From the IMG/VR virus record IMGVR_UViG_2617270961_000004: a stretch of DNA of 27,035 nucleotides; one strand, given 5' to 3'. The position numbers were made by a program, and so were the translations under genes. Shown piece after piece: positions 3,366-27,035 of the stretch (positions are counted from its first letter, which is position 1; each line of letters opens with the position of its first letter). Origin of the DNA: a virus. Taxonomy: Duplodnaviria; Heunggongvirae; Uroviricota; Caudoviricetes. The notes under the pieces are model-generated. The model was given only the letters and a program-made list of their open reading frames with translations, made no database searches and had not been told where the DNA came from.

Positions 3366-3376
3366 ATTCACCCCAC

Positions 3377-3403
3377 AAAAAAGCCCGCCTGAACCGGCGG
3401 GCT
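3377..3403 (-). terminator. rho-independent terminator candidate between lom and stf
   Basis: 8-bp GC-rich inverted repeat (agcccgcc / ggcgggct, 6-nt loop) followed on the minus strand by a run of T, just downstream of the lom stop. Confidence 0.6.
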
Positions 3404-3429
3404 GTCATAACACTGTGTTACCTGGCTAA

Positions 3430-4029: not shown

Positions 4030-4052
4030 AATTACCTCTCGCTTTTCTGCAA

Positions 4053-4078
4053 TAAAAAAGGCGTCATTTCTGACGCCC
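4053..4078 (-). terminator. rho-independent terminator candidate downstream of J
   Basis: Perfect 7-bp stem ggcgtca/tgacgcc with a 4-nt loop, followed on the minus strand by TTTTTT; lies between the J stop (4096) and the lom start. Confidence 0.65.
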
Positions 4079-4095
4079 GTTATGGGTTATAAAAT

Positions 4096-7578: not shown

Positions 7579-7637
7579 TCCTCACGCTCCATAAACGACA
7601 AAACCGCCCGGAGGCGGTTTCACATAAACGTTTTTCA

Positions 7638-8309
7638 TCATCGACCAATCACCACAACCTGACCACCATCCCCTTCGTCTGCCGTGCTGATCTCCTGAGA
7701 GACCACCCGCGACCCCACGCGCATTTCACCGTACAGAACCGGCAGAACATTGCCCTGGGCAACCATGTTATCCAGTGAGGAGAAATAGGTGTTCTGTTTG
7801 CCGTTATCCGTTGTCTGTGTACGGGGAGTTCTGGCTTTCGGTGCCAGCATCTGCGCCACACCACCGAGCACCATACTGGCACCGAGAGAAAACAGGATGC
7901 CGGTCATACCACCGGCCCCAATGGCTGCCCCCCATGCTGCAAGGGTGGCCCCGGCGGTAAAGAATGATCCGGCAATGGCGGCAGCCCCCAGGACAATCTG
8001 GAATACGCCACCTGACTTGGCCCCGGCGACTCTGGGAACAATATGAATCACAGCGCCATCAGGCAGAGTCTCATGTAACTGCGCCGTTAACCCGGACGTG
8101 CTGACGTCCCGCCCGGCAATCCGTACCTGATACCAGCCGTCGCTCAGTTTCTGACGAAACGCCGGGAGCTGTGTGGCCAGCGCCCGGATGGCTTCAGCCC
8201 CCGTTTTCACACGAAGGTCGATGCGGCGGCCAAATCGTTGTAAATCCCCGTAAAGGCAGATGCGCGCCATGCCCGGTGACGCCAGAGGGAGTGTGTGCGT
8301 CGCTGCCAT
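7638..8309 (-). CDS. I: tail assembly protein I (223 aa)
   Basis: 223 aa, MAATHTLPLASPGMARICLYGDLQRFGRR..., Gly/Ala-rich hydrophobic middle; position between K and J as in lambda. Confidence 0.9.
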   Translation of the reverse strand: MAATHTLPLASPGMARICLYGDLQRFGRRIDLRVKTGAEAIRALATQLPAFRQKLSDGWYQVRIAGRDVSTSGLTAQLHETLPDGAVIHIVPRVAGAKSGGVFQIVLGAAAIAGSFFTAGATLAAWGAAIGAGGMTGILFSLGASMVLGGVAQMLAPKARTPRTQTTDNGKQNTYFSSLDNMVAQGNVLPVLYGEMRVGSRVVSQEISTADEGDGGQVVVIGR

Positions 8310-8950
8310 TTGTCGGTATACCTCTCTCGTTTGCTCAGTTGTTCAGGAATATGGTGCAGCAGCTCGCCGTCACCACAGTAAATGGCGGCATGATTCGGCA
8401 CCGATGAACCAAAACAGCACAGCAGCACATCGCCCGGTTGTGCTGATGACAACGGCACCTGATACAGCCCTGTGGCCTCCAGATTATCCAGATAGAGATT
8501 CTGGCCGTGACGCCACCAGTCATCCCCGCGATGAAAATTCGGCATCTCAATCCCCGCCAGATGATAAGCATCCCGGAACAGCGTGTAACAGTCCGTCACC
8601 CCGTGCTCAAAGCGCCGCCCGGTGAGATGCGGCACACAGCGGAACTTATGAATCGCCCCCCGGCAGACCAGCAACCACGGCAAATCACTCTGCACCTGCA
8701 GCCGCCGGTCAGCCTCACTCAGCCAGGGCAGACCACCGGGGTGGCTGTGGACCAGCGCCACAATCTCACCCTGCATTTCTGCCTGCAGCCAGTCCTCCGG
8801 AGCCATCCGGAAATAATCCTCCGGCTCACCGGAAATATTCACGCAGGGAAAATATCTTTCCCCCTCCGGCGTTCTCACCACGAAGCCGCACGACTCCGCT
8901 GGCGCACATCGCCGGGCGTGCGCCAGAATCGCTGATTCTGTCTCTGTCAT
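8207..8950 (-). CDS. K: tail assembly protein K (MPN/JAMM + NlpC/P60 domains), 247 aa from the ATG 4 nt after the L stop
   Basis: JAMM motif HSHPGGLPWLSEAD and an NlpC/P60-like Cys/His region (GVTDCYTLF...HAAIYCGDGELLHH). The track ORF begins 25 codons upstream inside L and was trimmed. An internal ATG at 8804-8806 would give 199 aa but would cut the MPN domain. The 3' end overlaps the I start by 103 nt. Confidence 0.8.
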   Translation of the reverse strand: MTETESAILAHARRCAPAESCGFVVRTPEGERYFPCVNISGEPEDYFRMAPEDWLQAEMQGEIVALVHSHPGGLPWLSEADRRLQVQSDLPWLLVCRGAIHKFRCVPHLTGRRFEHGVTDCYTLFRDAYHLAGIEMPNFHRGDDWWRHGQNLYLDNLEATGLYQVPLSSAQPGDVLLCCFGSSVPNHAAIYCGDGELLHHIPEQLSKRERYTDKWQRRTHSLWRHRAWRASAFTGIYNDLAAASTFV

Positions 8951-8954
8951 GGGA

Positions 8955-9653
8955 TTACTGCGAAAGTTTGTTAATGGAAAGGAAGCCACCAAAGTTGCCG
9001 ACGTTATTGCGAAACTTACAGCCACTCAGGCATTTGCTGCATTTATCCTTCGTGATATCGGACGTCGGCTGGTCATATTCATCCGCGACAGCCGGACCGC
9101 TATAACCGCACTCGTCACCGCGATAGGTCCAGGTGCAGGTGTTGGCCAGCATGATACGTCCCGGAAAAACAGCGCCATCCGTTTCCGTCGGCGTGGACAG
9201 TACAAAGGAGGCACTCACCGCGCTCAGTTCGCTGCACTGCTCGATGCGCCAGCGGCTGATCACCTCCTGCTCCGGATCGGCGTCACTGTTTCCGTTGACG
9301 AAGTTCACCGCATCCAGAAAACGGGCGTAAACCTTACGCCGGACCACCGTTCCGCCGACAAGACTCTGCAGATCTTCCGCCATCCCGGTGACCATACCGT
9401 ACAGGTTAGAAACCGTCAGCGTGGGGCGCGTACTGGTGCCTTTGCCATTCAGTTCAAAACCGCTCCCCTGAATGGGATACGGCTGATACTGTCGCCCCTG
9501 CCAGGTGACCGGCTCACCTTTTTCGTTCTGCTCATTACAGAAAAAATAACGTTCTCCACCGACCTCTGTCAGGTCGATTTCCCAGAGCACCACGCTGGCC
9601 GACTGCTCCGCACGGGTGCATTCATTCAGTGTTTCCTGCCGGATATCCTGCAT
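8955..9653 (-). CDS. L: tail tip protein L (232 aa)
   Basis: 232 aa, MQDIRQETLNECTRAEQSASVVLWEIDLTEVGGERYFFCNE..., C-terminal Cys cluster. Start overlaps the M stop by 1 nt. Confidence 0.9.
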   Translation of the reverse strand: MQDIRQETLNECTRAEQSASVVLWEIDLTEVGGERYFFCNEQNEKGEPVTWQGRQYQPYPIQGSGFELNGKGTSTRPTLTVSNLYGMVTGMAEDLQSLVGGTVVRRKVYARFLDAVNFVNGNSDADPEQEVISRWRIEQCSELSAVSASFVLSTPTETDGAVFPGRIMLANTCTWTYRGDECGYSGPAVADEYDQPTSDITKDKCSKCLSGCKFRNNVGNFGGFLSINKLSQ

Positions 9654-9982
9654 CAGTTCACCACCTGTTCAAACTCTGCGCTGAACTCAACACGCAGCAT
9701 ACTGACCCGCGACGACCATTTTGCGCAGGTCACCTTTATCTGCCGCCACTCATAAGGCGGCGTCCACAGAAAGGCTTTCCAGCCCCCGTGCTCTTCCAGA
9801 AACGACTCCAGTACCGTGGCCTCCTCACGGGGGACAGAAAGCGTCACGCTGTACGTTTTCAGGTTGGCATTCAGCCCGGCAGGCGCTCGCTGGGAATAGC
9901 CATCACCAAAGCGCACCTTTCTTACAGAAGGGGCCGAAGCCACATCCATACCGGGTTTCACTTTCCAGCGGAAGGTTTTCAT
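9653..9982 (-). CDS. M: tail tip protein M (109 aa)
   Basis: 109 aa, MKTFRWKVKPGMDVASAPSVRKVRFGDGYSQRA...; ATGA overlap with the H stop. Confidence 0.9.
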   Translation of the reverse strand: MKTFRWKVKPGMDVASAPSVRKVRFGDGYSQRAPAGLNANLKTYSVTLSVPREEATVLESFLEEHGGWKAFLWTPPYEWRQIKVTCAKWSSRVSMLRVEFSAEFEQVVN

Positions 9983-12540
9983 CGTCCACCTCCGGAGAAC
10001 AGGCCACCATCACGCATCTGTGTCTGAATTTCATCACGGGCCCCCTTGCGGGCCATGTCATACACCGCCTTCAGAGCAGCCGGACCTATCTGCCCGTTCG
10101 TGCCGTCGTTGTTAATCACCACATGGTTATTCTGCTCAAACGTCCCGGACACCTGCGACCGGCTGTCAGCCAGACTGCCCGGTGTACCGACATAACCACC
10201 GGTGGCATAGCCGCGCATCAGCCGGTAGAGATTCCCCACGCCAATCCGGCTGGTTGCCTCCTTCGTGAAGACAAATTCACCACGGTGAACAATCCCCGCT
10301 GGCTCATATTTGCCGCCGGTTCCCGTAAATCCCCCGGTCGCAAAATGGAATTTCGCCGCAGCGGCCTGAATGGCTGTACCGCCTGACGCGGATGCTCCAC
10401 CACTGGCAGCACCGCCAATGGCGCTGCCGATACTCCCGACAATCCCCACCATTGCCTGCTTAAGCAGAATTTCTGTCATCATGGACAGCACGGAACGGGT
10501 GAAGCTGCGCCAGTTCTGCTCACTGCCGGTCAGCATCGCCGCCATATTCTGTGCAATACCATCAAAGGTCTGCGTGGCTGCACTTTTAACCTGCGACATA
10601 CTGTCCGTGGCGCTCTCTTCCCACTCACTCCAGCCGGACTTCAGGCCTGCCATCCAGCTCCCGCGAAGCTGGTCTTCAGCCGCCCAGGTCTTTTTCTGCT
10701 CTGACATGACGTTATTCAGCGCCAGCGGATTATCGCCATACTGTTCCTTCAGGCGCTGTTCCGTGGCTTCCCGTTCTGCCTGCCGGTCAGTCAGCCCCCG
10801 GCTTTTCGCATCAATGGCGGCCCGTTTTGCCCGTTGCTGCTGTGCGAATTTATCCGCCTGCTGCGCCAGCGCGTTCAGGCGCTCCTGATACGTAACCTTG
10901 TCGCCAAGTGCAGCCAGCTGGCGTTTGTACTCCAGCGTCTCATCTTTATGCGCCAGCAGGGATTTCTCCTGTGCAGACAGCTGGCGACGTTGCGCCGCCT
11001 CCTCCAGTACCGCGAACTGACTCTCCGCCTTCCACAAATCCCGGCGCTGCTGGCTGATTTTCTCATTCGCTCCGGCATGCTTCTCCAGCGTCCGGAGTTC
11101 TGCCTGAAGCGTCAGCAGGGCAGCATGAGCACTGTCTTCCTGACGATCGCCCGCAGACACCTTCACGCCGGACTGTTTCGGCTTTTTCAGCGTCGCTTCA
11201 TAATCCTTTTTCGCCGCCGCCATCAGCGTGTTGTAATCCGCCTGCAGGATTTTCCCGTCTTTCAGTGCCTTGCTCAGTTCTTCCTGACGGGCGGTATATT
11301 TCTCCAGCGGCGTCTGCAGCCGTTCGTAAGCCTTCTGCGCCTCTTCGGTATATTTCAGCCGTGACGCTTCGGTATCGCTCTGCTGCTGCGCATTTTTGTC
11401 CTGTTGAGTCTGCTGCTCAGCCTTCTTTCGGGCGGCTTCAAGCGCAAGACGGGCCTTTTCACGATCATCCCAGTAACGCGCCCGCGCTTCATCGTTAACA
11501 AAATAATCATCCTTGCGCAGATTCCAGATGTCGTCTGCTTTCTTAAACGCAGCCTCTGCCTTAATCAGCATCTCCTGCGCGGTATCAGGACGACCAATAT
11601 CCAGCACCGCATCCCACATGGATTTGAATGCCCGCGCTGTCCTGTCTGCCCAGGTCTCCAGCGTGCCCATGTTCTCTTTCAGGCGGCGGATCTGGTCATC
11701 AAACCCTTTCGTTGCGGCTTCGTCCGCCGCCTGCAATGCCCCGGCTTCATCGCCGGAACGCTGCAACTGAGCAACATACGCAATCTGCTCCGCCGTCACG
11801 TTATGGAACTGGCGCGCCATCGCCGTCAGCCCCGACGTCGGGTCAGTGGTCAGCTTCCCGAAGGCTTCAGCGACCTTGTCCACCTCCACACCGGATGCAG
11901 AAGAGAAACGCGCCACACTCTGGCTGATGGACGCAATCTGAGCCTCACCGCTTACCCCCGCCTTAACCAGTGCACTGAGTGACTCGCTGGTCTGGTTAAA
12001 CGTCAGCCCTGCCGCCTGCCCGGCTCTGGACAGGACCAGCATACGATCTGCCGTCAGACCCGACTGATTACCGGAAAGGACCAGCGTTTTGTTGAAATCG
12101 GACAGGGTTGAGTTACCCTGATACCAGGCATACGCCAGCGCACCGGTCGCCACCGCCAGCGAGGTGGCCCCGACCATCGGCAGGGTGATCGCACCGGCAA
12201 GCCCCCGGAACATGGGGATCATCCCGCCGAAGGAGTCCTTAACCTGACCACCCTGTTGCAGCAGGATCAGCCACGGGCTTTGCCCGCCTGCAAGCTGCGT
12301 GGCCACGTCGGTGAACTGTGCAGGCAGCATACGCATGGCGGCTTTATACTGCCCGACGGAAATCCCCGCTTTCTGTGCAGCCAGCGCCTGTCGGCTCAGC
12401 GACTGTTCAACGACTGCCGCTGTTTTTTTCGCATCAGTTTCCGTACCGAAAAAATGACGCCTGACTCTGGCCATCTGCTCGTCAAATCTGGCCGCATCCA
12501 GACTTAAATCAACGACCAGATCGCCTACCGGTTCAGCCAT
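9979..12540 (-). CDS. H: tail tape measure protein H (853 aa)
   Basis: 853 aa, MAEPVGDLVVDLSLDAARFDEQMARVRRHF..., long coiled-coil-like Ala/Gln/Glu/Lys-rich middle and Gly-rich C-terminus; length matches lambda H. Confidence 0.95.
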   Translation of the reverse strand: MAEPVGDLVVDLSLDAARFDEQMARVRRHFFGTETDAKKTAAVVEQSLSRQALAAQKAGISVGQYKAAMRMLPAQFTDVATQLAGGQSPWLILLQQGGQVKDSFGGMIPMFRGLAGAITLPMVGATSLAVATGALAYAWYQGNSTLSDFNKTLVLSGNQSGLTADRMLVLSRAGQAAGLTFNQTSESLSALVKAGVSGEAQIASISQSVARFSSASGVEVDKVAEAFGKLTTDPTSGLTAMARQFHNVTAEQIAYVAQLQRSGDEAGALQAADEAATKGFDDQIRRLKENMGTLETWADRTARAFKSMWDAVLDIGRPDTAQEMLIKAEAAFKKADDIWNLRKDDYFVNDEARARYWDDREKARLALEAARKKAEQQTQQDKNAQQQSDTEASRLKYTEEAQKAYERLQTPLEKYTARQEELSKALKDGKILQADYNTLMAAAKKDYEATLKKPKQSGVKVSAGDRQEDSAHAALLTLQAELRTLEKHAGANEKISQQRRDLWKAESQFAVLEEAAQRRQLSAQEKSLLAHKDETLEYKRQLAALGDKVTYQERLNALAQQADKFAQQQRAKRAAIDAKSRGLTDRQAEREATEQRLKEQYGDNPLALNNVMSEQKKTWAAEDQLRGSWMAGLKSGWSEWEESATDSMSQVKSAATQTFDGIAQNMAAMLTGSEQNWRSFTRSVLSMMTEILLKQAMVGIVGSIGSAIGGAASGGASASGGTAIQAAAAKFHFATGGFTGTGGKYEPAGIVHRGEFVFTKEATSRIGVGNLYRLMRGYATGGYVGTPGSLADSRSQVSGTFEQNNHVVINNDGTNGQIGPAALKAVYDMARKGARDEIQTQMRDGGLFSGGGR

Positions 12541-13371
12541 ACCGGACTCCTCCTGCGATCCCTTCTGATACTGTCATCAGCATTACGTCATCCTCCGTCA
12601 TGTCCGCCACATCCGGGGAAGCGGGGATAACTTCATTCCCGTCCGGGCCAAAACGAACGCCTCCGGCAAGCCCTGCCGCTTTCTGCATCAGCACATCATC
12701 TTCAGGCTCTTCGTCAGCCTCGCGCCGGTTCAGCAGACTGAAATCCAGCGGATGCATATCCGGATCGCTGAAAAACAGGCTGAGCACGGTGTACGTCAGC
12801 CCGGAAAAGTGCATATCCAGCAGAACATCATGAAAATAATGGGTACTGTAAAAGCGGTGCCAGTCGGCATACTCCGTGGATGACATCCCGGCAAGCATGG
12901 CACGCCAGTCGGGTCGCCCCATCTCTCGCGCCAGTTTCAGGGCAAAACTCAGCTCACCATCGAACACTTTCCCGCAGAAACAGGCTCTGCAGGCCCGGCG
13001 TCCTCTGTCTGTTCAGGAGCATCATTCACCACAAACTCATACATACCGGACAGCCGGTACACCACGTTTTCAGCATGAGAAATTGCCTCCGTGGGCCAGG
13101 TGGTAAGCACTTCCTGCTCAATCTGTTTAACGGCTTCATTCATAGAAGGCAGCTTTGTCTTCTGCGGATGGTTATGCCACAGGGACATCGCCACCAGAAA
13201 AGCACCGGTTCTGACGAGATCTTCCACGCTCACCTGTCGATTGAGACTGGATCCCGCCTGTTCTGCCTGTCGTTTCAGCAGGGCGAGATGCTCAATCCGC
13301 TGCAGGGCTGACAGTTCAGAAAGCGTGACGCTCATACCGTTATATTCAAATGATTCGGTTTTCAGGAACAT
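12533..13371 (-). CDS. T: tail assembly chaperone G-T fusion (gpGT) made by programmed -1 frameshift; T-frame segment is 12533-12960
   Basis: The T-frame ORF (144 codons, ...DGELSFALKLAREMGRPDW...) has no ATG of its own; the track start is a GTG. It is entered from G by a -1 slip at GGGAAAG (minus strand, plus coordinates 12954-12960). Its end overlaps the H start by 8 nt. Confidence 0.8.
12949..13371 (-). CDS. G: tail assembly chaperone G (140 aa)
   Basis: 140 aa, MFLKTESFEYNGMSVTLSELSALQRIEHLALLKRQ...; ends ...SAGKCSMVS with the slippery heptamer 6 codons before the stop. Confidence 0.9.
   Translation of the reverse strand: MFLKTESFEYNGMSVTLSELSALQRIEHLALLKRQAEQAGSSLNRQVSVEDLVRTGAFLVAMSLWHNHPQKTKLPSMNEAVKQIEQEVLTTWPTEAISHAENVVYRLSGMYEFVVNDAPEQTEDAGPAEPVSAGKCSMVS
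12954..12960 (-). other. programmed -1 ribosomal frameshift slippery heptamer G GGA AAG (G to G-T)
   Basis: Read directly: plus-strand ctttccc is the reverse complement of GGGAAAG, in the G frame as G|GGA|AAG. The -1 frame continues open for 144 codons (T). Confidence 0.85.
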
Positions 13372-13386
13372 CGCTGACTCTCCGGA

Positions 13387-14127
13387 TTAACTGTCGGTGA
13401 CGGTGATTCCTGCAACCACAGCAAGTTCACCATTACCGGATACAACCGGAATGTTGACCTTGCCTGCAGCAACACCTTTCACGGTGATGGTCATACCACT
13501 GACCGACACGGTGGCTTTTGTTTTATCCGCAGACACCGCACGGAAGCTCTTGTCGGTTGCGCCTTCCGGCTGGAATGCCACGGTCAGCGTGATGCTCCGC
13601 CCTTTCACCACCGAAGTGCTGGCAGGCGTCACGGTCATGCCGGTTGCCGCTGTTACCGTGCTGCGATCTTCTGCCATCGACGGACGTCCCACGTTGGTGA
13701 CTTTCACCGTGCGGGTGATCACTTCCTTCGCCGTCACCGCCTTACCGATACTGCTGACCCAGCCGCGGAACACATCGACCGTGCCGTTCGGGAAGCGGAT
13801 TTTATAGGCACGGGTATCCCCTTTATTAAACCACGCCAGCAGCGCCTGCTGCCCCTGCTCTCCGGGCATCCACGCCAGCGTGAAGCTGGTATCTCCGGCA
13901 GATTTCTGCCCCTGCCCGGTCGCAGTCCAGTCCGCATTTTCATCATCGAGATAGCTGTCGTCATAGGACTCAGCGGTCAGTTCGCCGGGCGTCAGGTCTT
14001 TAACTTTTGCCAGACGCGACCAGTCAACGTCTGAAAGCGGATTCGCATAAGGGCCACCGCTCCCCTTATAAACCAACAGGGTGGTCCCGGCACCTTTCAC
14101 CGGCATTGTAGGATTTGGTACAGGCAT
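13387..14127 (-). CDS. V: major tail tube protein V (246 aa), with C-terminal Ig-like domain
   Basis: Track ORF trimmed by 10 codons to the ATG at 14125-14127 (GAGGA SD 8 nt upstream), giving [16 protein letters not shown]... and 246 aa as in lambda V. Confidence 0.9.
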
Positions 14128-14134
14128 AGCGTCC

Positions 14135-14530
14135 TCACATTTCATAGGTAATGACATACGTCAGATCGGCTGAACTCCACAGGCCCGCATCATCGTCGCG
14201 CCGGTAGTCATAGCCACTGGCCACCATACTGGTGATCAAATCTGACAGCGCCGGGATATCGCTCATCACCGGATAAATCCGGGACTCCATCCACGAATCC
14301 AGCTCTGAATCCGGCACCTGAGCAGGCAGGAAAACTTCAATATGCAGCTCCGCCTGCCAGGTATCGCTGTCCAGCTCTTCGCCCGTGTATTCAGCGCCGG
14401 TGAGATAAACGGCAATTGCCGGAAAATCTTCCTCATCAAAAACAGCGGGGCGACCATCAAAAAGCGTCGCCCCGGTGTCATGCTTCTCCAGTGCATCCAG
14501 TACGGCTGCACGGAGTTCAGTATGTTTCAT
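14135..14530 (-). CDS. U: tail terminator protein U (131 aa)
   Basis: 131 aa, [36 protein letters not shown]...; ordered between Z and V. Confidence 0.9.
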
Positions 14531-15105
14531 CGCTTTATTACCATCCTCAGTTGATGCTGCAGCGCATAGCCCAGCTCTTTCGGAAGACGTTCACGCCGTA
14601 TCCGCTCAATATTTTGTTTAAACGCCGTGGTCAGCGGCACCGCCATCGGGATTTTCACCACATCAATGGGGTAACGGTTTTTCCCGGCCACACGCTGCAT
14701 GACATGCCACCGGCCATTTTTCAGTTGCTGAATAAACGCGCCGGGAATACGACGGTTACCCACCACAAGCACGCTGCCGCCACCTTTCAGGGATGAACGC
14801 TGCCCCTTTTTACGACGCCTGCGGCGCGAAAGGACAACCCGCGCATTACCCAGCTTGATTACGGGCAAATCCCCCCGGTTAACTTTGATTCTGGCCTGCG
14901 GATTTTTGACCGTGGCCCTTTTCAGCCTGGCCCTTTCCTTTACCAGTTTCCGGCGTACCTTTGTCTCACGGGCAACCTGTGACGCCGACTGCGATATCGC
15001 GGATGACGCAACGCGGTTAATGGCCATTGCGGCGGCACCGGGCACCGCCGTTCTGCTGATACGGCTGAGGTTTTCAACGGCCTGCTCAAGACCTTTTATG
15101 GCCAT
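14527..15105 (-). CDS. Z: tail completion protein Z (192 aa)
   Basis: 192 aa, MAIKGLEQAVENLSRISRTAVPGAAAMAINRVASS..., Arg/Lys-rich middle; 4-nt overlap with the U start. Confidence 0.9.
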   Translation of the reverse strand: MAIKGLEQAVENLSRISRTAVPGAAAMAINRVASSAISQSASQVARETKVRRKLVKERARLKRATVKNPQARIKVNRGDLPVIKLGNARVVLSRRRRRKKGQRSSLKGGGSVLVVGNRRIPGAFIQQLKNGRWHVMQRVAGKNRYPIDVVKIPMAVPLTTAFKQNIERIRRERLPKELGYALQHQLRMVIKR

Positions 15106-15116
15106 TCATCCCCCTT

Positions 15117-15470
15117 TCAGCGGCGACGGTTAACGGCAGGCGGTACGCCCCGCCCAAGCCAGAGATGACAGCTTCCGCCATCATCCGGCGAAATCCGGTC
15201 TATCCAGAAGTTTTCCTCACCGATGGTCAGCGTGTCGCCGCGCCGCAGCTGCCGCACATCATCAGTCCGGACAAACAGGGACGGGCTGGAGCCTTCAACG
15301 CGCACGCCCTGTCCGGCATAGCTGATATTTTCAGGGTCATCAAAAACACCACGTATCACAGCACCGGACTGCTCACCGGATGTCATGGTGGCTGACGTTC
15401 CCATGTACCCGCGTATCGTTTCATCGGCGCAGGCAATGGCAGCATCGAACAGGTTATCGAAATCAGCCAC
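15117..15470 (-). CDS. FII: head-tail connector protein FII (117 aa)
   Basis: 117 aa, MADFDNLFDAAIACADETIRGYMGTSATMTSGEQ...; length and position match lambda FII. Confidence 0.9.
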   Translation of the reverse strand: MADFDNLFDAAIACADETIRGYMGTSATMTSGEQSGAVIRGVFDDPENISYAGQGVRVEGSSPSLFVRTDDVRQLRRGDTLTIGEENFWIDRISPDDGGSCHLWLGRGVPPAVNRRR

Positions 15471-15481
15471 AGCGCCTCCCG

Positions 15482-15877
15482 TTATTGCATTCTGGCCAGG
15501 CCGCGCTCTGTCATTTCAGCTGCCACACCGGCAGAGACACGAAACGCCGTTCCCGGCAGCACAAATGCCACAGCCTCATCCCGCGTGGCGTGAAGTGCAT
15601 CAGTATGCAGCGTCACCAGTGCCACAACCGTGACCAGATCAGCCGTATCAGTCACGGTATCCGGCTGCGCTGATACAACCTCATTTTCATGCACGGTCAG
15701 CACATTTTCCGGGCTGACAGACGTGTCCTGACCGGCTGCGTCATCCGTGTCATCAAGCTCCTCTTCCAGCTCTGCCACACGGAGCGCCAGTTCTTCTTTC
15801 GTCCCCATCAGGCTGACATCACGGTTCAGTTGCTCACCCAGCGAACGGAGACGGGCAATCAGTTCATCTTTCGTCAT
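15482..15877 (-). CDS. FI: DNA packaging / head completion protein FI (131 aa)
   Basis: Track ORF trimmed by 13 codons to the ATG at 15875-15877 (GGAGGAG SD), giving MTKDELIARLRSLGEQLNRDVSL... as in lambda FI. Confidence 0.85.
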   Translation of the reverse strand: MTKDELIARLRSLGEQLNRDVSLMGTKEELALRVAELEEELDDTDDAAGQDTSVSPENVLTVHENEVVSAQPDTVTDTADLVTVVALVTLHTDALHATRDEAVAFVLPGTAFRVSAGVAAEMTERGLARMQ

Positions 15878-15918
15878 GGACTCCTCCACAGAGAGAAAAT
15901 GGCCCCGAAGGGCCATGA

Positions 15919-16944
15919 TTACGCCAGTTGAACGGACACGAACTCATCAGGATCAGCCAGCAGCATCAGCGGTGCTGACTGAATCATGGTGAACTCTCGC
16001 GCCGGATCGCCGGATGTCTTCCAGTTTTTCGGATAACGGGGAGACGCATTAATACCCTCACTCAATGCATCCGCATCCTGAATACAGCCATAGGTGCGCA
16101 GACCGCGTGCATGAGTGTTACCCAGCACCATCGTGTTGTCCGGCAGGAAGTTCTTTTTGACGCCGTTTTCCACGTACTGTCCGGAATACACGACGATGGC
16201 CACATCGCCATACATTCCCTTATAAGACACCGCTTTGCCCAGGTCTTTTACCGCTGTCTCCAGTTCGGAATGAGAGCCGCGACGGGTATCCAGCTTCTCC
16301 CTGACGGCTTTGAAGGAACGGAACAGCGCCCAGCCTTTCGGGTCAAACACGATGATATTCACCACACCGCTGGCGTTCAGCGCGTAGGCTTCGATATCGT
16401 CGATCGGGTCATACGTGGACTTGTCGCGCTTGCTCCACCCCGTGCTGCCGGACTGCGTGATGTTATTCGCTTCACTGCGACCCATATCCACCTCAACCGG
16501 ATCGAAGGCTTCACCGGTCATGGTGTATTTGCCCTTAAGCACGGCAGAAACTGCCTGCATCTCTTCGACCTGAGCAATGGCCAGCTCTTCGTCACGCATG
16601 TTCTGCATGATGATGCGACGGCGGCGGTAAGCCGGGTCCGCCAGATTCTGCGGATCTTCATCCGGCAGGCGACGCAGGGTCATCTGCGGATTCACTTCAT
16701 GCTTCGGCTTGACATATCCCGGCGTAAATTCAGAGGTGGAGCCGCCACGGGAACGGATAACCTCACCGGAAACAATCGGCGAAACGTACAGCGCCATGTT
16801 TACCAGTCCCGGAATTTGTGAGAGATAGACTTTCTCCGTAGTGAAGGGATAGCTCTCACGGAAAAAGAGACGCAGAAACAGCGGATCAAACTTAAATTTC
16901 TGCTCATTTGCCGCCAGCAGCTGGGCGGTTGTGTACATCGACAT
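15919..16944 (-). CDS. E: major capsid protein E (341 aa)
   Basis: Trimmed to the ATG at 16942-16944 (MSMYTTAQLLAANEQKFKFDPLFLRLFFRE...); 341 aa as in lambda E. The track ORF started 9 codons upstream at a GTG. Confidence 0.9.
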   Translation of the reverse strand: MSMYTTAQLLAANEQKFKFDPLFLRLFFRESYPFTTEKVYLSQIPGLVNMALYVSPIVSGEVIRSRGGSTSEFTPGYVKPKHEVNPQMTLRRLPDEDPQNLADPAYRRRRIIMQNMRDEELAIAQVEEMQAVSAVLKGKYTMTGEAFDPVEVDMGRSEANNITQSGSTGWSKRDKSTYDPIDDIEAYALNASGVVNIIVFDPKGWALFRSFKAVREKLDTRRGSHSELETAVKDLGKAVSYKGMYGDVAIVVYSGQYVENGVKKNFLPDNTMVLGNTHARGLRTYGCIQDADALSEGINASPRYPKNWKTSGDPAREFTMIQSAPLMLLADPDEFVSVQLA

Positions 16945-16999
16945 AAAAAAATCCCGTAAAAAAAGCCGCACAGGCGGCCTTTAGTGATGAAGGGTCAGG

Positions 17000-17332
17000 T
17001 TAAACGATGCTGATTGCCGTTCCGGCAAACGCGGTCCGTTTTTTCGCCTCGTCGCTGGCAGCCTCCGGCCAGAGCACATCCTCATAACGGAACGTGCCGG
17101 ACTTGTAGAACGTCAGCGTGGTGCTGGTCTGGTCAGCAGCAACAGCAAGAATGCCAACGGCAGCACCGTCGGTGGTGCCATCCCACGCAACCAGCTTACG
17201 GGTGGAGGTATCCGGCATCAACGGAGTCATTGCTGGCGTTTTCTTACTCAATCCGCCGGGCGCGGTTGCGGTATGAGCCGGGTCACTGTTGCCCAGCGGC
17301 TGGTAATGGGTAAAGGTTTCTTTGCTCGTCAT
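17000..17332 (-). CDS. D: head decoration protein D (110 aa)
   Basis: Trimmed to the ATG at 17330-17332 (AAGGGA SD), giving [27 protein letters not shown]...; 110 aa as in lambda D. Confidence 0.9.
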
Positions 17333-17341
17333 AAACATCCC

Positions 17342-17947
17342 TTACACTGGTGTGTTCAGCAAATCGTTAACGGCATCAGATGCCGGGTTACCTGCAGCCA
17401 GCGGTGCCGGTGCCCCCTGCATCAGACGATCCAGCGCAGTGTCACTGCGCGCCTGTGCACTCTGTGGTGCTGCGGCCAGAATACGGCGGGCCGTTTCCAC
17501 GGTCATACCGGGGGTTTCGGCCAGCACGCATGCCTGTTCTTCGCGTCCGTGAGCCTCCTCACAGTTGAGGATCCCCATAATGCGACTGTTTTCTGCCGCA
17601 ACCGCTGCGGTGATCTGCGCGTTCACGTCCGGCTGCGCAGCGCTGGCGTTCTCGCCCTCCGTCGCTTGCACCACGCCAGTAACGTCAGCCTGCGAAGCAG
17701 TGGCTGAAACAGTTGTTGATTGAGTCTCTTTGGTCATTCGCCCTCCTGAGAGACGGGATTTACGTGCATCCAGTGCATCACGCATGACGGTGATCGCATC
17801 GGTACTGTTCACAAGTTCATCAGCCAGTCCGGCATCAATGGCCTCCTGACCGCTGTACACTGCAGCCTCGGTATCCAGCACAGCCTGCACGGACAGGCCG
17901 GTATATGCCGACACCTTCTGTGCAAACATCCGGCGGGTTGCATCCAT
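17342..17947 (-). CDS. Nu3: capsid scaffolding protein Nu3 (in-frame internal start within C; 201 codons)
   Basis: In-frame ATG at 17945-17947 (MDATRRMFAQKV...) sharing the C stop; the position matches where lambda Nu3 begins relative to the C stop, as recalled. No strong SD, so moderate confidence. Confidence 0.55.
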   Translation of the reverse strand: MDATRRMFAQKVSAYTGLSVQAVLDTEAAVYSGQEAIDAGLADELVNSTDAITVMRDALDARKSRLSGGRMTKETQSTTVSATASQADVTGVVQATEGENASAAQPDVNAQITAAVAAENSRIMGILNCEEAHGREEQACVLAETPGMTVETARRILAAAPQSAQARSDTALDRLMQGAPAPLAAGNPASDAVNDLLNTPV

Positions 17948-18641
17948 CCGGGACTGCAGTGTTTCCCGGACATCATCCGGTAGATGGCTGTAGGGGTTGC
18001 CATCCACCTTATGGCTGCCGCTGTAAATCAGCGTGATTTCCACGCCCTGTTTCTCCAGCGCAGCACCGTAATTACTGTGAGCCATCATGACGCCGATGGA
18101 GCCTGTCCGGGCGGTCTGCGTGACCAGACGCCGGGAGGCGGCGCTGGCAAGCAGCTGACCTGCACTGCAGTTCATGTCGTTGGCCAGCGCCCATACCGGT
18201 TTTATGTCTCGCACACGGGCGATGATGTCAGCACAGTCAAATGCTCCCGCCACCATCCCGCCCGGTGTGTCCATATCCAGCAGAATGCCGTCCACCATCG
18301 GATCGCTGGCAGCCTGTTGCAGACGGGCGATAATGCCGTTGTAACCGGTCATCCCCGAATACGGCTGCAGCGCCCGCGTCCGGCTGACCAGCGTGCCGGA
18401 CACCGGCAGCACGGCGATGCCGTTCATGACCTGATAACTGCGGGCCTGTCGTGGTCCGTCATCATCAACGGATAACGCCAGCGCCGCGGGTGCCTCTCCG
18501 GCAGTCAGGCTGTCGCCGGACACCGCATCCGTCAGGCGGCTGATCCCAAGCTGGCCTGCAAGCGCACAAAAGAAAACCCGCGCATAGGCGGGTTCAAGCA
18601 TCAGCGGCTCATTAAAGGCCATACTGGCAATATGCGGGAGA

Positions 18642-18661
<20 letters not shown>
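17342..18661 (-). CDS. C: prohead protease / scaffold protein C (439 aa), GTG start
   Basis: Begins (V/M)TAELRNLPHIASMAFNEPLMLEPAYARVFF... at the GTG at 18659-18661, preceded by GAGGAGGAG and overlapping the B stop by 20 nt. ClpP/SppA-like S49 protease region in the middle. The track ORF runs 45 codons further upstream inside B. Confidence 0.85.
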
Positions 18662-22341
<3,680 letters not shown>

Positions 22342-22367
<26 letters not shown>

Positions 22368-22887
22368 TCAGCAACCCCGGTATCAGTTCATCCAGCGCGG
22401 CTGCTTTGTTCATGGCTTTGATGATATCCCGTTTCAGGAAATCAACATGTCGGTTTTCCAGTTCCGGAAAACGCCGCTGCACCGACAGGGGGATCCCGTC
22501 GAGAATACTGGCAATTTCACCTGCGATCCGCGACAGCACGAAAGTACAGAATGCGGTTTCCACCACTTCAGCGGAGTCTCTGGCATTCTTCAGTTCCTGT
22601 GCGTCGGCCTGCGCACGCGTAAGTCGATGGCGTTCGTACTCAATAGTCCCTGGCTGGAGATCTGCCTCGCTGGCCTGCCGCAGTTCTTCAACCTCCCGGC
22701 GCAGCTTTTCGTTCTCAATTTCAGCATCCCTTTTGGCATACCATTTTATGACGGCGGCAGAGTCATAAAGCACCTCATTACCCTTGCCACCGCCTCGCAG
22801 AACGGGCATTCCCTGTTCCTGCCAGTTCTGAATGGTACGGATACTCGCACCGAAAATGTCAGCCAGCTGCTTTTTGTTGACTTCCAT
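22342..22887 (-). CDS. Nu1: terminase small subunit Nu1 (181 aa)
   Basis: 181 aa, MEVNKKQLADIFGASIRTIQNWQEQGMPVLRGGGKGNEVLYD... (winged-HTH N-terminus); lies immediately inside cos. Confidence 0.95.
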
Positions 22888-23065
22888 TGTTCATTCCACG
22901 GACAAAAACAGAGAAAGGAAACGACAGAGGCCAAAAAGCTCGCTTTCAGCACCTGTCGTTTCCTTTCTTTTCAGGGGGTATTTTAAATAAAAACATTAAG
23001 TTACGACGAAGAAGAACGGAAACACCTTAAACCGGAAAATTTTCATAAATAGCGAAAACCCGCGA
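22888..23065 (-). promoter_or_regulatory. cosB region (terminase small-subunit binding R-site repeats)
   Basis: Inverted copies of an 11-bp element (ggaaacgacag at 22917-22927 and ctgtcgtttcc at 22954-22964) and a further gaacggaaacac near 23028, between the Nu1 start and cosN. The sequence reads as the reverse complement of the lambda left end as recalled. Confidence 0.7.
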
Positions 23066-23077
23066 GGTCGCCGCCCC
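23066..23077 (-). other. cosN, 12-nt cohesive-end site (GGGCGGCGACCT on the minus strand)
   Basis: Plus strand aggtcgccgccc is the exact reverse complement of the lambda cohesive end GGGCGGCGACCT. It is flanked by sequence matching the lambda left end (22888-23065) and right end (cgtaacctgtcggatc..ccggaaaggacccg at 23078-23108). Confidence 0.9.
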
Positions 23078-23275
23078 GTAACCTGTCGGATCGCCGGAAA
23101 GGACCCGCAAAATGATAATAATTATCATCTGCATGTCACAACGTGCATCTACGCCATCAAACCACGTCAAATAATCAATTATGACGCAGGTATCATATTA
23201 ATTGATCTGCATCAACTTAACGTAAAAACAACTTCAGACAATACAAATCAGCGACACTGAATACGGGACAACCTC

Positions 23276-23509
23276 ATGTCAACGAAGAACAGAACCCGCA
23301 GAACAACAACCCGCAACATCCGCTTTCCTAACCCAATGATTGAACAAATTAACATCGCTCTTGATCAAAAAGGGTCCGGGAATTTCTCAGCCTGGGTCAT
23401 TGAAGCCTGCCGCCGGAGACTGTGCTCAGAAAAAAGAGTTTCTCCTGAAGCAAACAAAGAAAAGAGTGACATTACTGAATTGCTCAGAAAACAGATCAGA
23501 CCAGATTGA
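23276..23509 (+). CDS. small basic putative ribbon-helix-helix (Arc/CopG-like) DNA-binding protein, 77 aa
   Basis: AT-rich ORF on the strand opposite the phage late genes. Basic N-terminus (MSTKNRTRRTTTRN), then a beta-strand-like IRFPNPMIEQINIAL and helix SAWVIEACRRRL resembling the RHH fold. Weak SD; family assignment is inference. Confidence 0.5.
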   Translation: MSTKNRTRRTTTRNIRFPNPMIEQINIALDQKGSGNFSAWVIEACRRRLCSEKRVSPEANKEKSDITELLRKQIRPD

Positions 23510-23565
23510 AGCAATTTAGATAATCGTGCAGACTACACCCCTCATATCACATGGAAGGTACTACA

Positions 23566-23976
23566 ATGGCTCAGGTTGCCATTTTTAAACAAATATTCGA
23601 TAAAGTGCGAAATAATTTAAACTATCACTGGTTTTATTCTGAACTAAAACGTCACAATGTCTCACATTACATTTACTATTTAGCCACAGAGAATATTCAT
23701 CTTGTTCTTGAAAACGATAATACGGTTTTAATAAAAGGACAGGGTAAGGTTGTAAATGTAAGATTTTCAAAAAATAAATGCCTTATAGAAGCCACCTTAA
23801 AGGGATTCAAATCAGGAGAGTTATCATTTTACGAATACAGGAAAAATCTTGCTACAGCAGGGGTTTTCAGATGGATTACAAATATCCACGAAAACAAAAG
23901 GTATTACTATACCTTTGATAATTCATTACTCTTTACTGAGAACATTCAGAACACTACACAAATATTTCCGCACTAA
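23566..23976 (+). CDS. hypothetical protein, 136 aa; tentatively DUF1398 / YbcV-like prophage protein
   Basis: AT-rich ORF with a GGAAGG SD 7 nt upstream of the ATG at 23566; the track ORF starts 5 codons earlier at an ATG with no SD. No signal peptide or transmembrane segment. The length equals that recalled for the E. coli DLP12 YbcV protein, which lies next to lysis genes in that prophage; the identity is unverified. Confidence 0.55.
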
Positions 23977-24263
23977 ATCATAACGTCCGGTTTCTTCCGT
24001 GCCAGAACCGGACTCGCTGGCATGATGAAATATGTGTACCCGGTAACCCCGGTGTGCATCGTTTTTGATTATTCCCACACACTCGCGCAGAAGGAGTTCC
24101 CCGTCGGGCTACGGTCTCTGTTAATACGGGAATACGGCGACGATACAGCGCATGATGTGTCAGGCTTGAATACCTTTATCCTTTAAAAGGGATATCAGTT
24201 AAGTTATCCCGTGTAGGGTATAAGCCATTATCAAACTCTGTAGGAAGTGGCTTTTGTAATGGC

Positions 24264-24290
24264 AATAAAAAGCCCCGCGAATGCGAGGCT
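24264..24290 (-). terminator. rho-independent terminator candidate downstream of Rz
   Basis: Hairpin agccccgc-gaat-gcgaggct (7 bp, one mismatch) followed on the minus strand by TTTTATT; positioned ~170 nt after the Rz stop. Confidence 0.5.
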
Positions 24291-24463
24291 AAATCCTGGT
24301 ATTTGTAATGACTGGCTCTTATCTCAACGCAGCCCCTTACCGCGCGCAAAATGCTCAATATCAAGCATCAGCAATGAGATGTTTAATCTGGATTCACTCC
24401 AGAAGTGAGCACCACCCTGTCTACAGAGCCAGATGTGAAGGATGATGAGTAAAATTATCGCTA

Positions 24464-24931
24464 TCATCGAAGGCATTGCGTCCTGATGTATTCCTGAAGC
24501 GTTCTCAGTGCTGTTTGGTCGCGGATAATTCCGTCCCGGATACCGAGAACGTTTCGTCCAGCAACTGGAGAGAGTTCGACGGTGGCATCATTGCCCATGC
24601 CGGAGGCGCTGGAGGTTTCGACTGAGGATGGCACAGGGCATTTTCCTTTGACGAGCACCCGACCACCATTATCAAGCTTGCGCCGAAGAGCATCATTTTC
24701 AGCTTTCGCATCAGCTAACTCCTTCGTGTATTTATCATCGAGTGCATCAGCATCACGCTGGCGCTGCTGCATGTCAGTAATGGTGGCGTTCGCCTTCTCC
24801 AGTTCACTGGCCTTGTTATCGCGCTGTTCTTTGTAGGCGATTGCATTATCACGGTAATGATTAACAGCCCATGACAGGCAGACGATGATGCAGATAACCA
24901 GAGCGGAGATAATCGCGGTTACCCTGCTCAT
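24464..24931 (-). CDS. Rz: spanin inner-membrane subunit Rz (i-spanin), 155 aa
   Basis: [38 protein letters not shown]...: N-terminal transmembrane helix then a coiled-coil periplasmic domain. ATG at 24929-24931 overlaps the R stop as ATGA; the track ORF starts 4 codons upstream at a GTG. Confidence 0.85.
24505..24711 (-). CDS. Rz1: spanin outer-membrane lipoprotein subunit Rz1 (o-spanin), 68 aa, embedded in Rz in the +1 frame
   Basis: [21 protein letters not shown]...: signal peptide plus lipobox (VVGC), Pro-rich mature part ([13 protein letters not shown]); AAGGAG SD 7 nt upstream. Fully nested inside Rz as in lambda. Confidence 0.75.
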
Positions 24932-25425
24932 TGTTGCCCCCACAAACAGACCTCACGCTCAATCTCACGACGAGTCATCAGGCCTTTCCATTGCTTACCG
25001 CCAGCGTATGCCCAGCGACGTAGCTGGTCACATGCGCCCTTGATATCGCCCTGGTTTATTTTGCGAAGAAGAGTAGATGTTCTGAAATTGCCTGCGCCCA
25101 CGTTATAGACGAACGAGTAAAGAGCGCCGCGCGTTGTTTCCGGTATATCGACTTTGATGTACGGGTTAATTTGTCTGGCTACCGTGGCAAGGTCTTTATT
25201 CAGGAGGGCTTTGCATTCTGCTTCGGTATACGTTTTACCGGGAATGATGTCTTTTCCTGTATGCCCGTGACATACAGTCCATACGCCAACGATATCTTTG
25301 TATGGTATGTAGCTGACACCTTCCAGACCATCGTTACCACTTGGGCCAGTGATTAACACTGATGCTATAGCAATTGCTCCGCCACCAATAGCAGCAGCAA
25401 CGGCTTTTCGTAATGATGGAGGCAT
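24928..25425 (-). CDS. R: SAR endolysin (phage-21 R-type lysozyme, T4-lysozyme-like GH24), 165 aa
   Basis: N-terminal signal-anchor-release segment ([20 protein letters not shown]) followed by the lysozyme catalytic region ([23 protein letters not shown]). Length and sequence match phage 21 R as recalled; this is not the lambda R transglycosylase. Confidence 0.9.
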
Positions 25426-25640
25426 TATTCACCTCTCGCAGCCTTGCGCTTATCTTCTTTAATCTTGAAATAAAGGTTTGTCAGGTACGTCAGCAGGCCA
25501 AATACCAAGCTACCCAGCACACCTATTGCTGCCCACTGTGAGGGCGTGACTTTATCGAGCAGCTGTAAAAACCAGTAGCCAGCACTGCCTGCGGAGGTGC
25601 CGTAGGCAATGCCCGTTGTTAACTTATCCATGGATTTCAT
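25425..25640 (-). CDS. S: pinholin S21-type (class II holin), 71 aa, dual-start motif
   Basis: [28 protein letters not shown]...[23 protein letters not shown]...: two transmembrane domains, Met1-Lys-Ser-Met4 dual start (antiholin/holin), charged C-terminus. GGAGGTGAGG SD. Stop overlaps the R start by 1 nt. Confidence 0.9.
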
Positions 25641-25735
25641 AGCCTCACCTCCGCAAATAACGGATGGTGTACACGGTTCGGAACGAAGAGGAAAGGTATA
25701 GAAGTTACATTAGCGTAAGGCTTGAACATCTATTC

Positions 25736-25766
25736 AAAAAGAAAAACGCCGCGATTATTCTGGCGT
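25736..25766 (-). terminator. weak terminator-like hairpin plus T-tract between the AraC-like gene and S
   Basis: 5-bp stem acgcc/ggcgt with an 11-nt loop, followed on the minus strand by TTTTTCTTTT; ~60 nt after the AraC-like stop and ~100 nt before the S start. The stem is weak, so low confidence. Confidence 0.3.
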
Positions 25767-25827
25767 AGCTGAAAGCATCATACAATTATCAAATACGAAA
25801 ATTACAAAATCATTAAAACGCATCACG

Positions 25828-26568
25828 TTACATCATGTCTTTTTCTAAAAAAAATCTTGATGAATATTGATGGGGAGGAACACCAAAATACCTTCTGAAA
25901 ACACTTACAAAATATGACGTGTTTTCATAACCGCATATCTCAGCAACTTTTCCAACAGAATATAAATTGTAGCTTAATAACCTTTCCGCCATCACCATTC
26001 GCTCTTCAAGAATTAACTTACTAAATGATAAGCCTTCGTGCTTTAATTTTCTTTTTAACAGACTTTCACTCAGATACAGTCTTGAAGATATATCACAAAG
26101 TCTCCATGCTGCAGATATATCCGTGTGAACAATAGCCTTAACTTTACTTCCTAAACTATTAAGACATCCAAATAAAAAACTTTGCACTATTTTCTCTGAA
26201 GATAAGATAGCAAGACATGCAAGTGATATTTGATTTCTAACAAAATCCACAGTTCTGCCATCACAATTCAAGCATGCAATCAAGTTCTTTAACAATGAAA
26301 AATCTTCACATTCCACCATCACGTATGCCGGATAAAACCTTCTTACAGAAAAAGGTGAGAGTGTGTTGCTTTTAAAGAAATCATTAACTGTTTTCTCTTC
26401 AACATCTACGATCATTACATGATCTATATTTGATGAAAAAAAATCTTTTAAATTGTAATCAATGAGAACAGCACTTCCTTTTTTAAACAAAATATCTTCT
26501 TTACCAATTCGGACATCAAACGAGTTCAACACCAAAATGATAGAACATATGTATGGCATATTATCCAC
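25828..26568 (-). CDS. AraC/XylS-family transcriptional regulator (GadX/YdeO/AppY-like subfamily), 246 aa
   Basis: C-terminal AraC-type HTH (LYLSESLLKRKLKHEGLSFSKLILEERM...VGKVAEICGYENTSYFVSVFRRYFGVPPHQY). Strongly AT-rich compared with the flanking phage genes. GGTGG SD. Subfamily assignment is from recalled similarity to E. coli YdeO. Confidence 0.85.
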   Translation of the reverse strand: MDNMPYICSIILVLNSFDVRIGKEDILFKKGSAVLIDYNLKDFFSSNIDHVMIVDVEEKTVNDFFKSNTLSPFSVRRFYPAYVMVECEDFSLLKNLIACLNCDGRTVDFVRNQISLACLAILSSEKIVQSFLFGCLNSLGSKVKAIVHTDISAAWRLCDISSRLYLSESLLKRKLKHEGLSFSKLILEERMVMAERLLSYNLYSVGKVAEICGYENTSYFVSVFRRYFGVPPHQYSSRFFLEKDMM

Positions 26569-26780
26569 CTGATATCATTGGGGTTACACCAGGTAAGTAT
26601 AGGTGGAAAATCAATATTCGCCAGTTCAACAATAAGGAAAATTTCATTGCATCACAAGTATAAAATTATGTATTTAACTCACAAAGACAAATTATTAAAC
26701 CAATCCGTTATATTATATATAGCTGCGTGGAATCATAATATTATATATTTTGACTGGCATGTTTACCAACTTTAAGTTGC

Positions 26781-27035
26781 GGTAATGACTCCAACTTATT
26801 GATAGTGTTTTATGTTCAGATAATGCCCGATGACTTTGTCATGCAGCTCCACCGATTTTGAGAACGACAGCGACTTCCGTCCCAGCCGTGCCAGGTGCTG
26901 CCTCAGATTCAGGTTATGCCGCTCAATTCGCTGCGTATATCGCTTGCTGATTACGTGCAGCTTTCCCTTCAGGCGGGATTCATACAGCGGCCAGCCATCC
27001 GTCATCCATATCACCACGTCAAAGGGTGACAGCAG
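26781..27035 (-). mobile_element. IS1 insertion sequence, right-end 255 bp (truncated by window edge)
   Basis: Terminal inverted repeat ggtaatgactccaacttattgatagtg beginning at 26781, followed by sequence matching the insB 3' end of IS1 as recalled. The rest of the element lies outside the window. Confidence 0.9.
26796..27035 (-). CDS. insB: IS1 transposase InsB, C-terminal part (partial; 5' end outside window)
   Basis: Translation ...[76 protein letters not shown] matches the InsB C-terminus; the reading frame stays open to the window end. Confidence 0.85.

Follow-up and report, generated by a model that had tools for sequence, protein, structure and literature searches.

A lambda-type head and packaging module paired with a pinholin/SAR-endolysin lysis cassette in the late region of a lambda-family Escherichia coli prophage

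How a late operon that resembles that of phage lambda comes to carry lysis genes of another type, and where along the DNA the two kinds of module meet, are the questions raised by a stretch of phage DNA of 27,035 nucleotides (hereafter the window, meaning this stretch at its full length). A sequence-only reading of it had assigned the head, tail and terminase genes to the lambda type and the lysis genes to the phage 21 type, and had located a modular recombination joint in the interval that separates cos from the lysis genes and also carries an AT-rich cassette. The reference sequences used for comparison were lambda (PV340536, 36 kb, most of the genome), phage 21 (OL657228, complete genome) and phage 434 (OL657227, a 5.2-kb stretch comprising the lysis region); phage 21 is the prototype of phages lysing with a pinholin and a signal-anchor-release (SAR) endolysin. 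Gene-by-gene alignment and a percent-identity plot against lambda and phage 21 confirmed the mosaic and located its breakpoints, which turned out to be several.

The window is almost certainly the late region of an intact-looking lambda-family Escherichia coli prophage, with modules drawn from the common lambdoid gene pool (Table 1). There is equally little room for doubt as to how these modules are paired: packaging and head genes of the lambda type, together with cos, are combined with a tail type common to lambda and phage 21, with an S-R pair of the pinholin/SAR-endolysin type known from phages 21 and 434 and from K-12 DLP12 (essD/rrrD), and with a third allele made up of the C-terminal half of Rz, mature Rz1 and a small open reading frame (ORF). 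Nothing in the window sequence contradicts this mosaic lambda-family reading.

Table 1. Features of the window, listed from the upstream side of the lysis genes towards the tail fibre gene
Feature	Position	Strand	Evidence or remark
Late operon, lambda-like	whole window	all long ORFs (-)	ORF listing
IS1 end	26781-27035	(-)	PF03400; terminal repeat GGTAATGACTCC... from 26781; InsB C-terminus 26796-27017; runs off the window
AraC-family (YdeO-like) regulator, AT-rich	25828-26568	(-)	PF12833 and PF00165; phrog_1450; bounds the lysis module on its upstream side
S, class II holin (pinholin), S21 type, 71 aa	25425-25640	(-)	PF04971 and reference alignments
S dual start	Met1 at 25640; Met4 at 25631	(-)	Met1, antiholin S71 form with extra Lys2; Met4, S68 form
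R, SAR endolysin, GH24 lysozyme, 165 aa	24928-25425	(-)	PF00959 and R21/RrrD alignments
Rz, i-spanin, 155 aa	24464-24931	(-)	PF03245; ATG at 24931, four-base ATGA overlap with the R stop codon
Rz1, o-spanin lipoprotein, 68 aa	24505-24711	(-)	wholly embedded, +1 frame of Rz; PF06085, 76 bits
Small ORF, 50 aa, or 47 aa from the ATG at 24467	24324-24476	(-)	directly after Rz; ATG overlaps the Rz stop codon as ATGA
Intrinsic-terminator-like hairpin and T run	24271-24290	(-)	downstream of the small ORF; pattern scan only
Conserved 108-bp island	24045-24152		blastn; lambda ~80%, phage 21 91.7%, phage 434 92.6%
DUF1398/YbcV-like gene, AT-rich (34% GC)	23551-23976	(+)	PF07166; the AT-rich cassette of the sequence-only reading
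DUF3950/YlcI-YnfO family small gene	23276-23509	(+)	PF13132; NF041551
cosN	23065-23076	(-)	exact match to the lambda cohesive-end sequence GGGCGGCGACCT
Packaging and head: Nu1, A, W, B, C/Nu3, D, E, FI, FII	15117-22887	(-)	lambda type
Tail, Z to I	7638-15105	(-)	aa identity 88-100% to lambda, 86-100% to phage 21; nt identity 90-100% to both
J, central tail fibre	4096-7578	(-)	95.3% aa to phage 21 J, 83.6% to lambda J

Holin and endolysin of the lysis cassette

The product of S matches the Pfam family of the bacteriophage P21 holin S (PF04971) with 120.9 bits against a cutoff of 26, over profile positions 1-63 of 64, and is 87% identical to the S protein of phage 21 and 99% identical (70 of 71 residues) to that of phage 434; among the NCBIfam models there is none for it. 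Its N-terminus, MKSMDK, is the same as in the S proteins of phages 21 and 434, whose annotations give both an S71 and an S68 product, and the Met1/Met4 dual start, Lys2 included, is thus present in the window as well. The first transmembrane domain is rich in Gly, Ala and Ser and SAR-like, the second is strongly hydrophobic (Kyte-Doolittle peak at residues ~36-56), the C-terminal tail is charged, and residues 12-26 are identical to those of S21. Compared with the S protein of lambda by BLASTP, S gave no alignment even at E<=100.

The endolysin gene R belongs to the phage lysozyme family (PF00959, 155.7 bits) and its product is 96.4% identical to R21. In searches of the PDB, the matches were 4ZPU, listed as RrrD (E = 3e-109), followed by 3HDE (2e-108) and 3HDF (4e-92), both listed as “Lysozyme” and which we take to be the structures of R21; identity to the DLP12 protein RrrD (4ZPU) is ~98%, and residues 1-60 are identical in that alignment, the SAR helix being part of this stretch. 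This Gly/Ala-rich N-terminal helix spans residues ~8-26, with a moderate Kyte-Doolittle peak, and the catalytic triad E35/D44/T50 is present in the translation. The lambda counterparts of the two proteins, a class I holin (S105/S107) and a transglycosylase, have no detectable similarity to them: BLASTP of R against lambda R returned noise only (E = 3.3), and blastn and tblastn of the window against lambda found no similarity past position 24931, i.e., none in S-R. The sequence-only reading had predicted a 71-residue pinholin with dual start and a SAR endolysin, both of the phage 21 type and distinct from the lambda holin and transglycosylase, and both parts of that prediction stand, the two ORFs lying at the stated coordinates, on the minus strand; S and R do not align better to lambda than to phage 21.

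Gene order and overlaps in the cassette are those of phage 21, where, according to its annotation, the stop codon of S and the start codon of R likewise have one base in common and R and Rz share the same four-base overlap. In phage 434, the corresponding genes are annotated as antiholin, holin class II, SAR endolysin, i-spanin and o-spanin. The Pfam scores of the four lysis genes of the window, S, R, Rz and Rz1, all exceed the respective thresholds by a wide margin. In terms of annotation, S and R of the window are to be named pinholin/antiholin and SAR endolysin, instead of lambda-type holin and transglycosylase.

The pathway used by pinholins and SAR endolysins is described in PMC6139136 and PMC9636201; literature searches returned such reviews of the pathway and no paper specific to this prophage. 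As the proteins of the window are 87-99% identical to the studied S21/R21 pair and to its 434 and DLP12 relatives, the pinholin/SAR-endolysin pathway is expected to operate for this S-R pair too. Late transcription would then give rise to the S71 antiholin and the S68 pinholin from the dual start, both accumulating in the inner membrane, while R would be exported in a Sec-dependent manner and kept inactive in the same membrane by its SAR helix. At the time set for triggering, S68 would assemble into small heptameric pinholes, ~2 nm wide, that depolarise the membrane without releasing cytoplasmic endolysin; with the collapse of the proton motive force, the SAR helix of R would exit the membrane, and the released enzyme would refold into its active form and degrade the murein. 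The Rz-Rz1 spanin would act last, by fusing or disrupting the outer membrane. The 9 of 71 residues at which S differs from S21 could alter the timing of lysis.

Virion modules and the breakpoints between cos and S

From J through cos and ~360 bp past cosN (positions 5082-23438), the window is colinear with lambda and 97.3% identical to it at the nucleotide level, so that its structural genes are not as diverged from that phage as S and R. Amino acid identity to lambda reaches 98.9% for Nu1, 99.7% for A, 100% for W, 99.6% for B, 97.1% for C, 94.6% for D, 96.6% for E, 88.3% for FI and 95.7% for FII; over the whole set, Nu1 through FII, the range is 88-100% to lambda versus 40-67% to phage 21. 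At the nucleotide level, the head and packaging genes are 93-100% identical to lambda versus 61-86% to phage 21, these values referring to the aligned part of the bins, in several of which phage 21 coverage is partial. The tail genes from Z to I are similar to both phages and are thus non-discriminating; only across the head and packaging half is lambda clearly the closer of the two. In phage 21, the likeness to the window extends over the tail from Z to J (86-100% amino acid identity), and the nucleotide profile shows that the C-terminal third of J (~4096-5081) is of the phage 21 type and not of the lambda type. The side tail fibres and lom also differ from those of lambda, as does the J C-terminus. 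The earlier assignment of head, tail and terminase genes to lambda therefore holds for the head and terminase, but the tail is of a type shared by both phages and J is closer to phage 21.

The lambda-type DNA does not end at cosN, and the 362 bp proximal to cos, starting from position 23077 where the end of the phage 434 record aligns, are also 96% identical to 434, the virion genes of which are presumably lambda-like. Breakpoints beyond this point were read from a per-base identity profile, in bins of 100 bp, against lambda and phage 21, complemented with an alignment of Rz in bins of 30 nt. The simplest arrangement, and the one proposed by the sequence-only reading, would be a single modular joint in the AT-rich interval between cos and Rz, with everything on the virion side derived from lambda and everything from Rz through S derived from phage 21. 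Such a joint would account for the fall in lambda identity from 97% to ~82% at 23438-23493, where the AT-rich stretch begins. However, lambda has a diverged homologue of the AT-rich DUF1398 gene, the ORF annotated YbcV, with 76% amino acid identity; the gene lies in a segment (23493-24152) that is 82% identical to lambda at the nucleotide level, and phage 21, like 434, does not have it. Moreover, the segment from 24153 to ~24690 matches neither lambda nor phage 21, the N-terminal half of Rz matches both phages equally, and lambda homology comes to an end only at 24931, at the start of Rz. The single-joint arrangement was thus rejected and is highly improbable.

Instead, the identity profile displays at least five breakpoints, at ~23438/23493, 24152/24153, ~24690, 24931/24932 and 25651-25671, and the boundary between lambda-type and 21-type DNA is the junction of the R and Rz genes, 24931/24932. 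From 24932 to 25651-25671, a segment containing R and S, there is no lambda match; taken from 24684, the cassette is 88.5% identical to phage 21 at the nucleotide level and 92.9% identical to phage 434 (24684-25651). Of the earlier proposal, the juxtaposition of lambda-type head and packaging genes and a 21-type S-R pair is thus upheld, but neither the single joint nor its location in the AT-rich cassette survives. The lysis cassette is itself a mosaic rather than purely of the phage 21 type; it is closer to phage 434 than to phage 21 and should not be labelled wholly “21-type”.

Spanin genes and the small ORF that follows them

Rz has its transmembrane domain at residues 1-25, as expected of an i-spanin, in which an N-terminal domain of this kind precedes a periplasmic coiled-coil region; its 155 residues are counted from the ATG at 24931, the ORF lister starting the frame at an upstream GTG (24943). 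The embedded Rz1 carries the lipobox VVGC. The first ~83 residues of Rz are near-identical to those of lambda, 21 and 434, and at the nucleotide level this half of the gene (~24691-24931) is 88-89% identical to lambda and phage 21 alike (88.7% for lambda), phage 21 being indistinguishable from lambda in bins of 30 nt. The last ~72 residues are only ~30% identical. The sequence-only reading had noticed that the C-terminal half of Rz departs from lambda, which is correct; as the Rz proteins of 21 and 434 are nearly the same as that of lambda, this half departs equally from all three. Rz1 is 47% identical to the Rz1 proteins of 21 and 434: the start of the signal peptide and a PPxPPAW motif are conserved, and the mature part has diverged from lambda, 21 and 434. 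Two cysteines are conserved in Rz and one is kept in mature Rz1.

In the binned alignment, the nucleotide break inside Rz falls near 24690; as the start codon of Rz1 (24711) precedes it by ~20 nt, the C-terminal part of Rz and the mature part of Rz1 were exchanged together, as a unit. Such a joint exchange would fit the established interaction between the C-termini of the two spanin proteins. The whole segment from 24153 to ~24690, comprising the C-terminal ~72 codons of Rz, mature Rz1 and the 50-residue ORF, has no match in lambda, 21 or 434, and replaces bor, which is present in lambda and lies downstream of Rz in 21 and downstream of the lysis genes in 434. Its left edge is marked by the conserved 108-bp island, located just upstream of bor in both 21 and 434. 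At the nucleotide level, the C-terminal half of Rz and Rz1 match those of phage Kati and of Salmonella phage SPN9CC, which is P22-like, with 93-100% identity.

The small ORF sits where lambda, 21 and 434 have bor, the latter being encoded on the opposite strand, and has one N-terminal hydrophobic helix. It belongs to phrog_11822, to which no function is assigned, has no NCBIfam model, and is annotated as a hypothetical protein in the RefSeq record of strain EC291. By tblastn, it adjoins Rz in 44 phage records, including those of Sf6 (gene 65), HK620, CUS-3, epsilon34 (gene 67), mEp460, mEp043 and mEp213. This raises the question as to whether it should be counted as a true fifth lysis gene, coding for a small membrane protein that travels with this allele of Rz-C and Rz1 and modulates the function of the spanin or the holin; we consider this quite unlikely. 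In a pattern scan of 22800-27035 for promoters and terminators, counts were not above those of shuffled sequence, and the hairpin that follows the small ORF is the only candidate that could plausibly be a terminator. Scanned against Rfam along its full length, the window matched IS009 only, within the tail-fibre-assembly region, and the lysis region gave no match.

In terms of origin, mosaic boundaries at or near gene or domain borders are standard in lambdoid phages. The arrangement in the window may have arisen by homologous recombination within conserved stretches, namely the N-terminal half of Rz, the 108-bp island upstream of bor and the DNA proximal to cos, and the mutually interacting C-terminal half of Rz and mature Rz1 would have travelled together.

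Relatives of the prophage and the region upstream of S

Two relatives are essentially the same element as the window. Phage Kati (PP925833) matches the window at 98.9% identity over 20468-25651 and, at 97.4% identity, spans 94% of positions 1-25000, and a prophage of E. coli EC291 (NZ_AP027445), in which RefSeq names genes nohD, rrrD and essD, is colinear and 99.8% identical over 17889-26780. These copies bear on the possibility that the junction between lambda-type and 21-type genes is an artefact, either a chimera of the assembly or the chance adjacency of unrelated remnants, for example a DLP12-like lysis fragment lying beside a lambda-like prophage. The ~98% identity of R to DLP12 RrrD (PDB 4ZPU) and the nearby IS1 would be in keeping with such an origin. 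However, the contiguous series Nu1-cos-DUF3950-DUF1398-small ORF-Rz-R-S is found in Kati, an isolated phage, at 98.9% identity and in complete E. coli chromosomes at 99.8%, the lysis ORFs are all intact with canonical overlaps, and cosN is exact. DLP12 itself is a defective remnant devoid of a virion module; in comparison, the cassette of the window sits in a complete late operon. The independent colinear copies rule out an assembly chimera, and the artefact explanation as a whole, rejected on the basis of these near-identical copies, has a vanishingly small probability.

The pairing of modules is widely distributed. Of the best 25 phage records with lambda-type virion genes, 13 extend into 21-type R, whereas the matches of lambda and DE3 end at 24931. 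As for the stretch running from cos to the AraC-like gene (22888-27035), 311 of 5426 complete E. coli genomes carry 80% of it or more. The mosaic is thus already known and an ordinary instance of the documented modular mosaicism of lambdoid phages, the same pairing being found in many sequenced phages and in hundreds of E. coli genomes. As a textbook example it is a clean one, its boundaries coinciding with those of genes or domains, and apart from correct annotation it has little importance.

Among the reference phages, resemblance to the window is thus distributed unevenly. Phage 434 shares the S-R part of the cassette but differs in having a lambda/21-type C-terminal half of Rz and Rz1, and phage 21 likewise has another Rz C-terminus and Rz1. 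Upstream of S, alignments to 434 and Kati end at 25651, and homology to 21, 434 and Kati taken together ends at 25651-25671. What lies on the other side differs from one phage to the next: there are tRNA genes in phage 21 and, in the Q-to-S interval of phage 434, a porin gene disrupted by IS5 in place of the AraC-like gene, and Kati diverges from the window. Beyond ~25671, across the AraC-like gene and IS1, the profile in bins of 100 bp shows no lambda or phage 21 match.

IS1 is absent from otherwise 99.8% identical prophages, and the colinear match to EC291 accordingly ends at 26780. Lying between the Q/pR' region, which is outside the window, and S, it might lower late transcription in this prophage. 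Taken further, the cassette could be present in a prophage that is lysis-defective or cryptic, with IS1 upstream of S uncoupling the late operon from pR'/Q and leaving a mosaic without current function. The position of the element is compatible with such uncoupling, since IS1 starts at 26781, between the AraC-like gene and the place where related prophages have YbgA, a lipocalin and the Q gene. However, Q-modified RNA polymerase is established in lambda to read through terminators, the viable phage 434 has IS5 in the equivalent Q-to-S interval, and all late ORFs in the window are intact, the region past IS1 lying outside it. A defective or cryptic state is thus unlikely, and the late region is best regarded as that of an intact-looking prophage.

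The AraC-like gene scores 127 bits against the YdeO model, below the cutoff of that model. It is a moron, located upstream of S.

The slot beside Rz

In phages lambda, 21 and 434, the slot beside the i-spanin gene Rz is held by bor; here, it is occupied by a small ORF whose ATG at 24467 overlaps the Rz stop codon (ATGA) and whose product contains a single, N-terminal hydrophobic helix. This ORF is assigned to phrog_11822, a family labelled as being of unknown function, and Rz-adjacent copies of it occur in 44 phage records, including Sf6 (gene 65), HK620, CUS-3, epsilon34 (gene 67), mEp460 and others. A short conserved island is found directly upstream of bor in phages 21 and 434; the window retains the island, with 92-93% identity to these two phages and about 80% to lambda, but lacks bor. 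Recombination on the left-hand side, in the replacement of bor and of the C-terminal half of Rz, probably took place at this island.

Features of the window (dash, minus strand)
Feature	Coordinates	Strand	Remarks
IS009 (RF02111) Rfam match	44-242	-	220 bits vs gathering score 117
Side tail fibre and lom-position genes	585-4029	-	
J C-terminal third (receptor-binding end)	4096-5081	-	phage-21-type, not lambda-type
Conserved island, 108 bp	24045-24152		conserved with 21, 434, lambda
Terminator-like hairpin	24271-24290		3' of small ORF
Small ORF	24324-24476	-	50 aa; 47 aa if started at the ATG
AraC-family regulator gene	25828-26568	-	immediately 5' of S (pinholin gene)
IS1 copy, one end	26781-27035	-	terminal repeat from 26781; extends past window edge

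The AraC-family gene and IS1

The AraC-family gene is AT-rich (GC 31-40%); its product is YdeO-like, with a score below the equivalog cutoff, and falls into phrog_1450, also labelled as unknown function. Related prophages display the gene order Q, lipocalin, YbgA, AraC-family gene and essD, the RefSeq name for S homologues. The gene looks like a moron, comparable in kind to AraC-like regulators of prophages, AppY and PatE for example. IS1 is inserted upstream of it, with the InsB C-terminus encoded at 26796-27017, and may be polar on late transcription; prophages otherwise 99.8% identical carry no IS1 at 26781.

The tail tip and tail fibres

Over the whole protein, J shares 95% amino acid identity with phage 21 J and 84% with lambda J, and within 4051-5081 the lambda alignment covers only 375 bp at 77% nucleotide identity. 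The phage-21-type C-terminal third of J suggests that the host-range determinants differ from those of lambda. The 928-aa side tail fibre is mosaic, matching lambda Stf (80%) over its N-terminal 354 aa only, and the lom-position gene (3430-4029) encodes an Ail/OmpX-family product with only 46% identity to lambda Lom. The IS009 match falls within the tail-fibre-assembly (tfa) gene.
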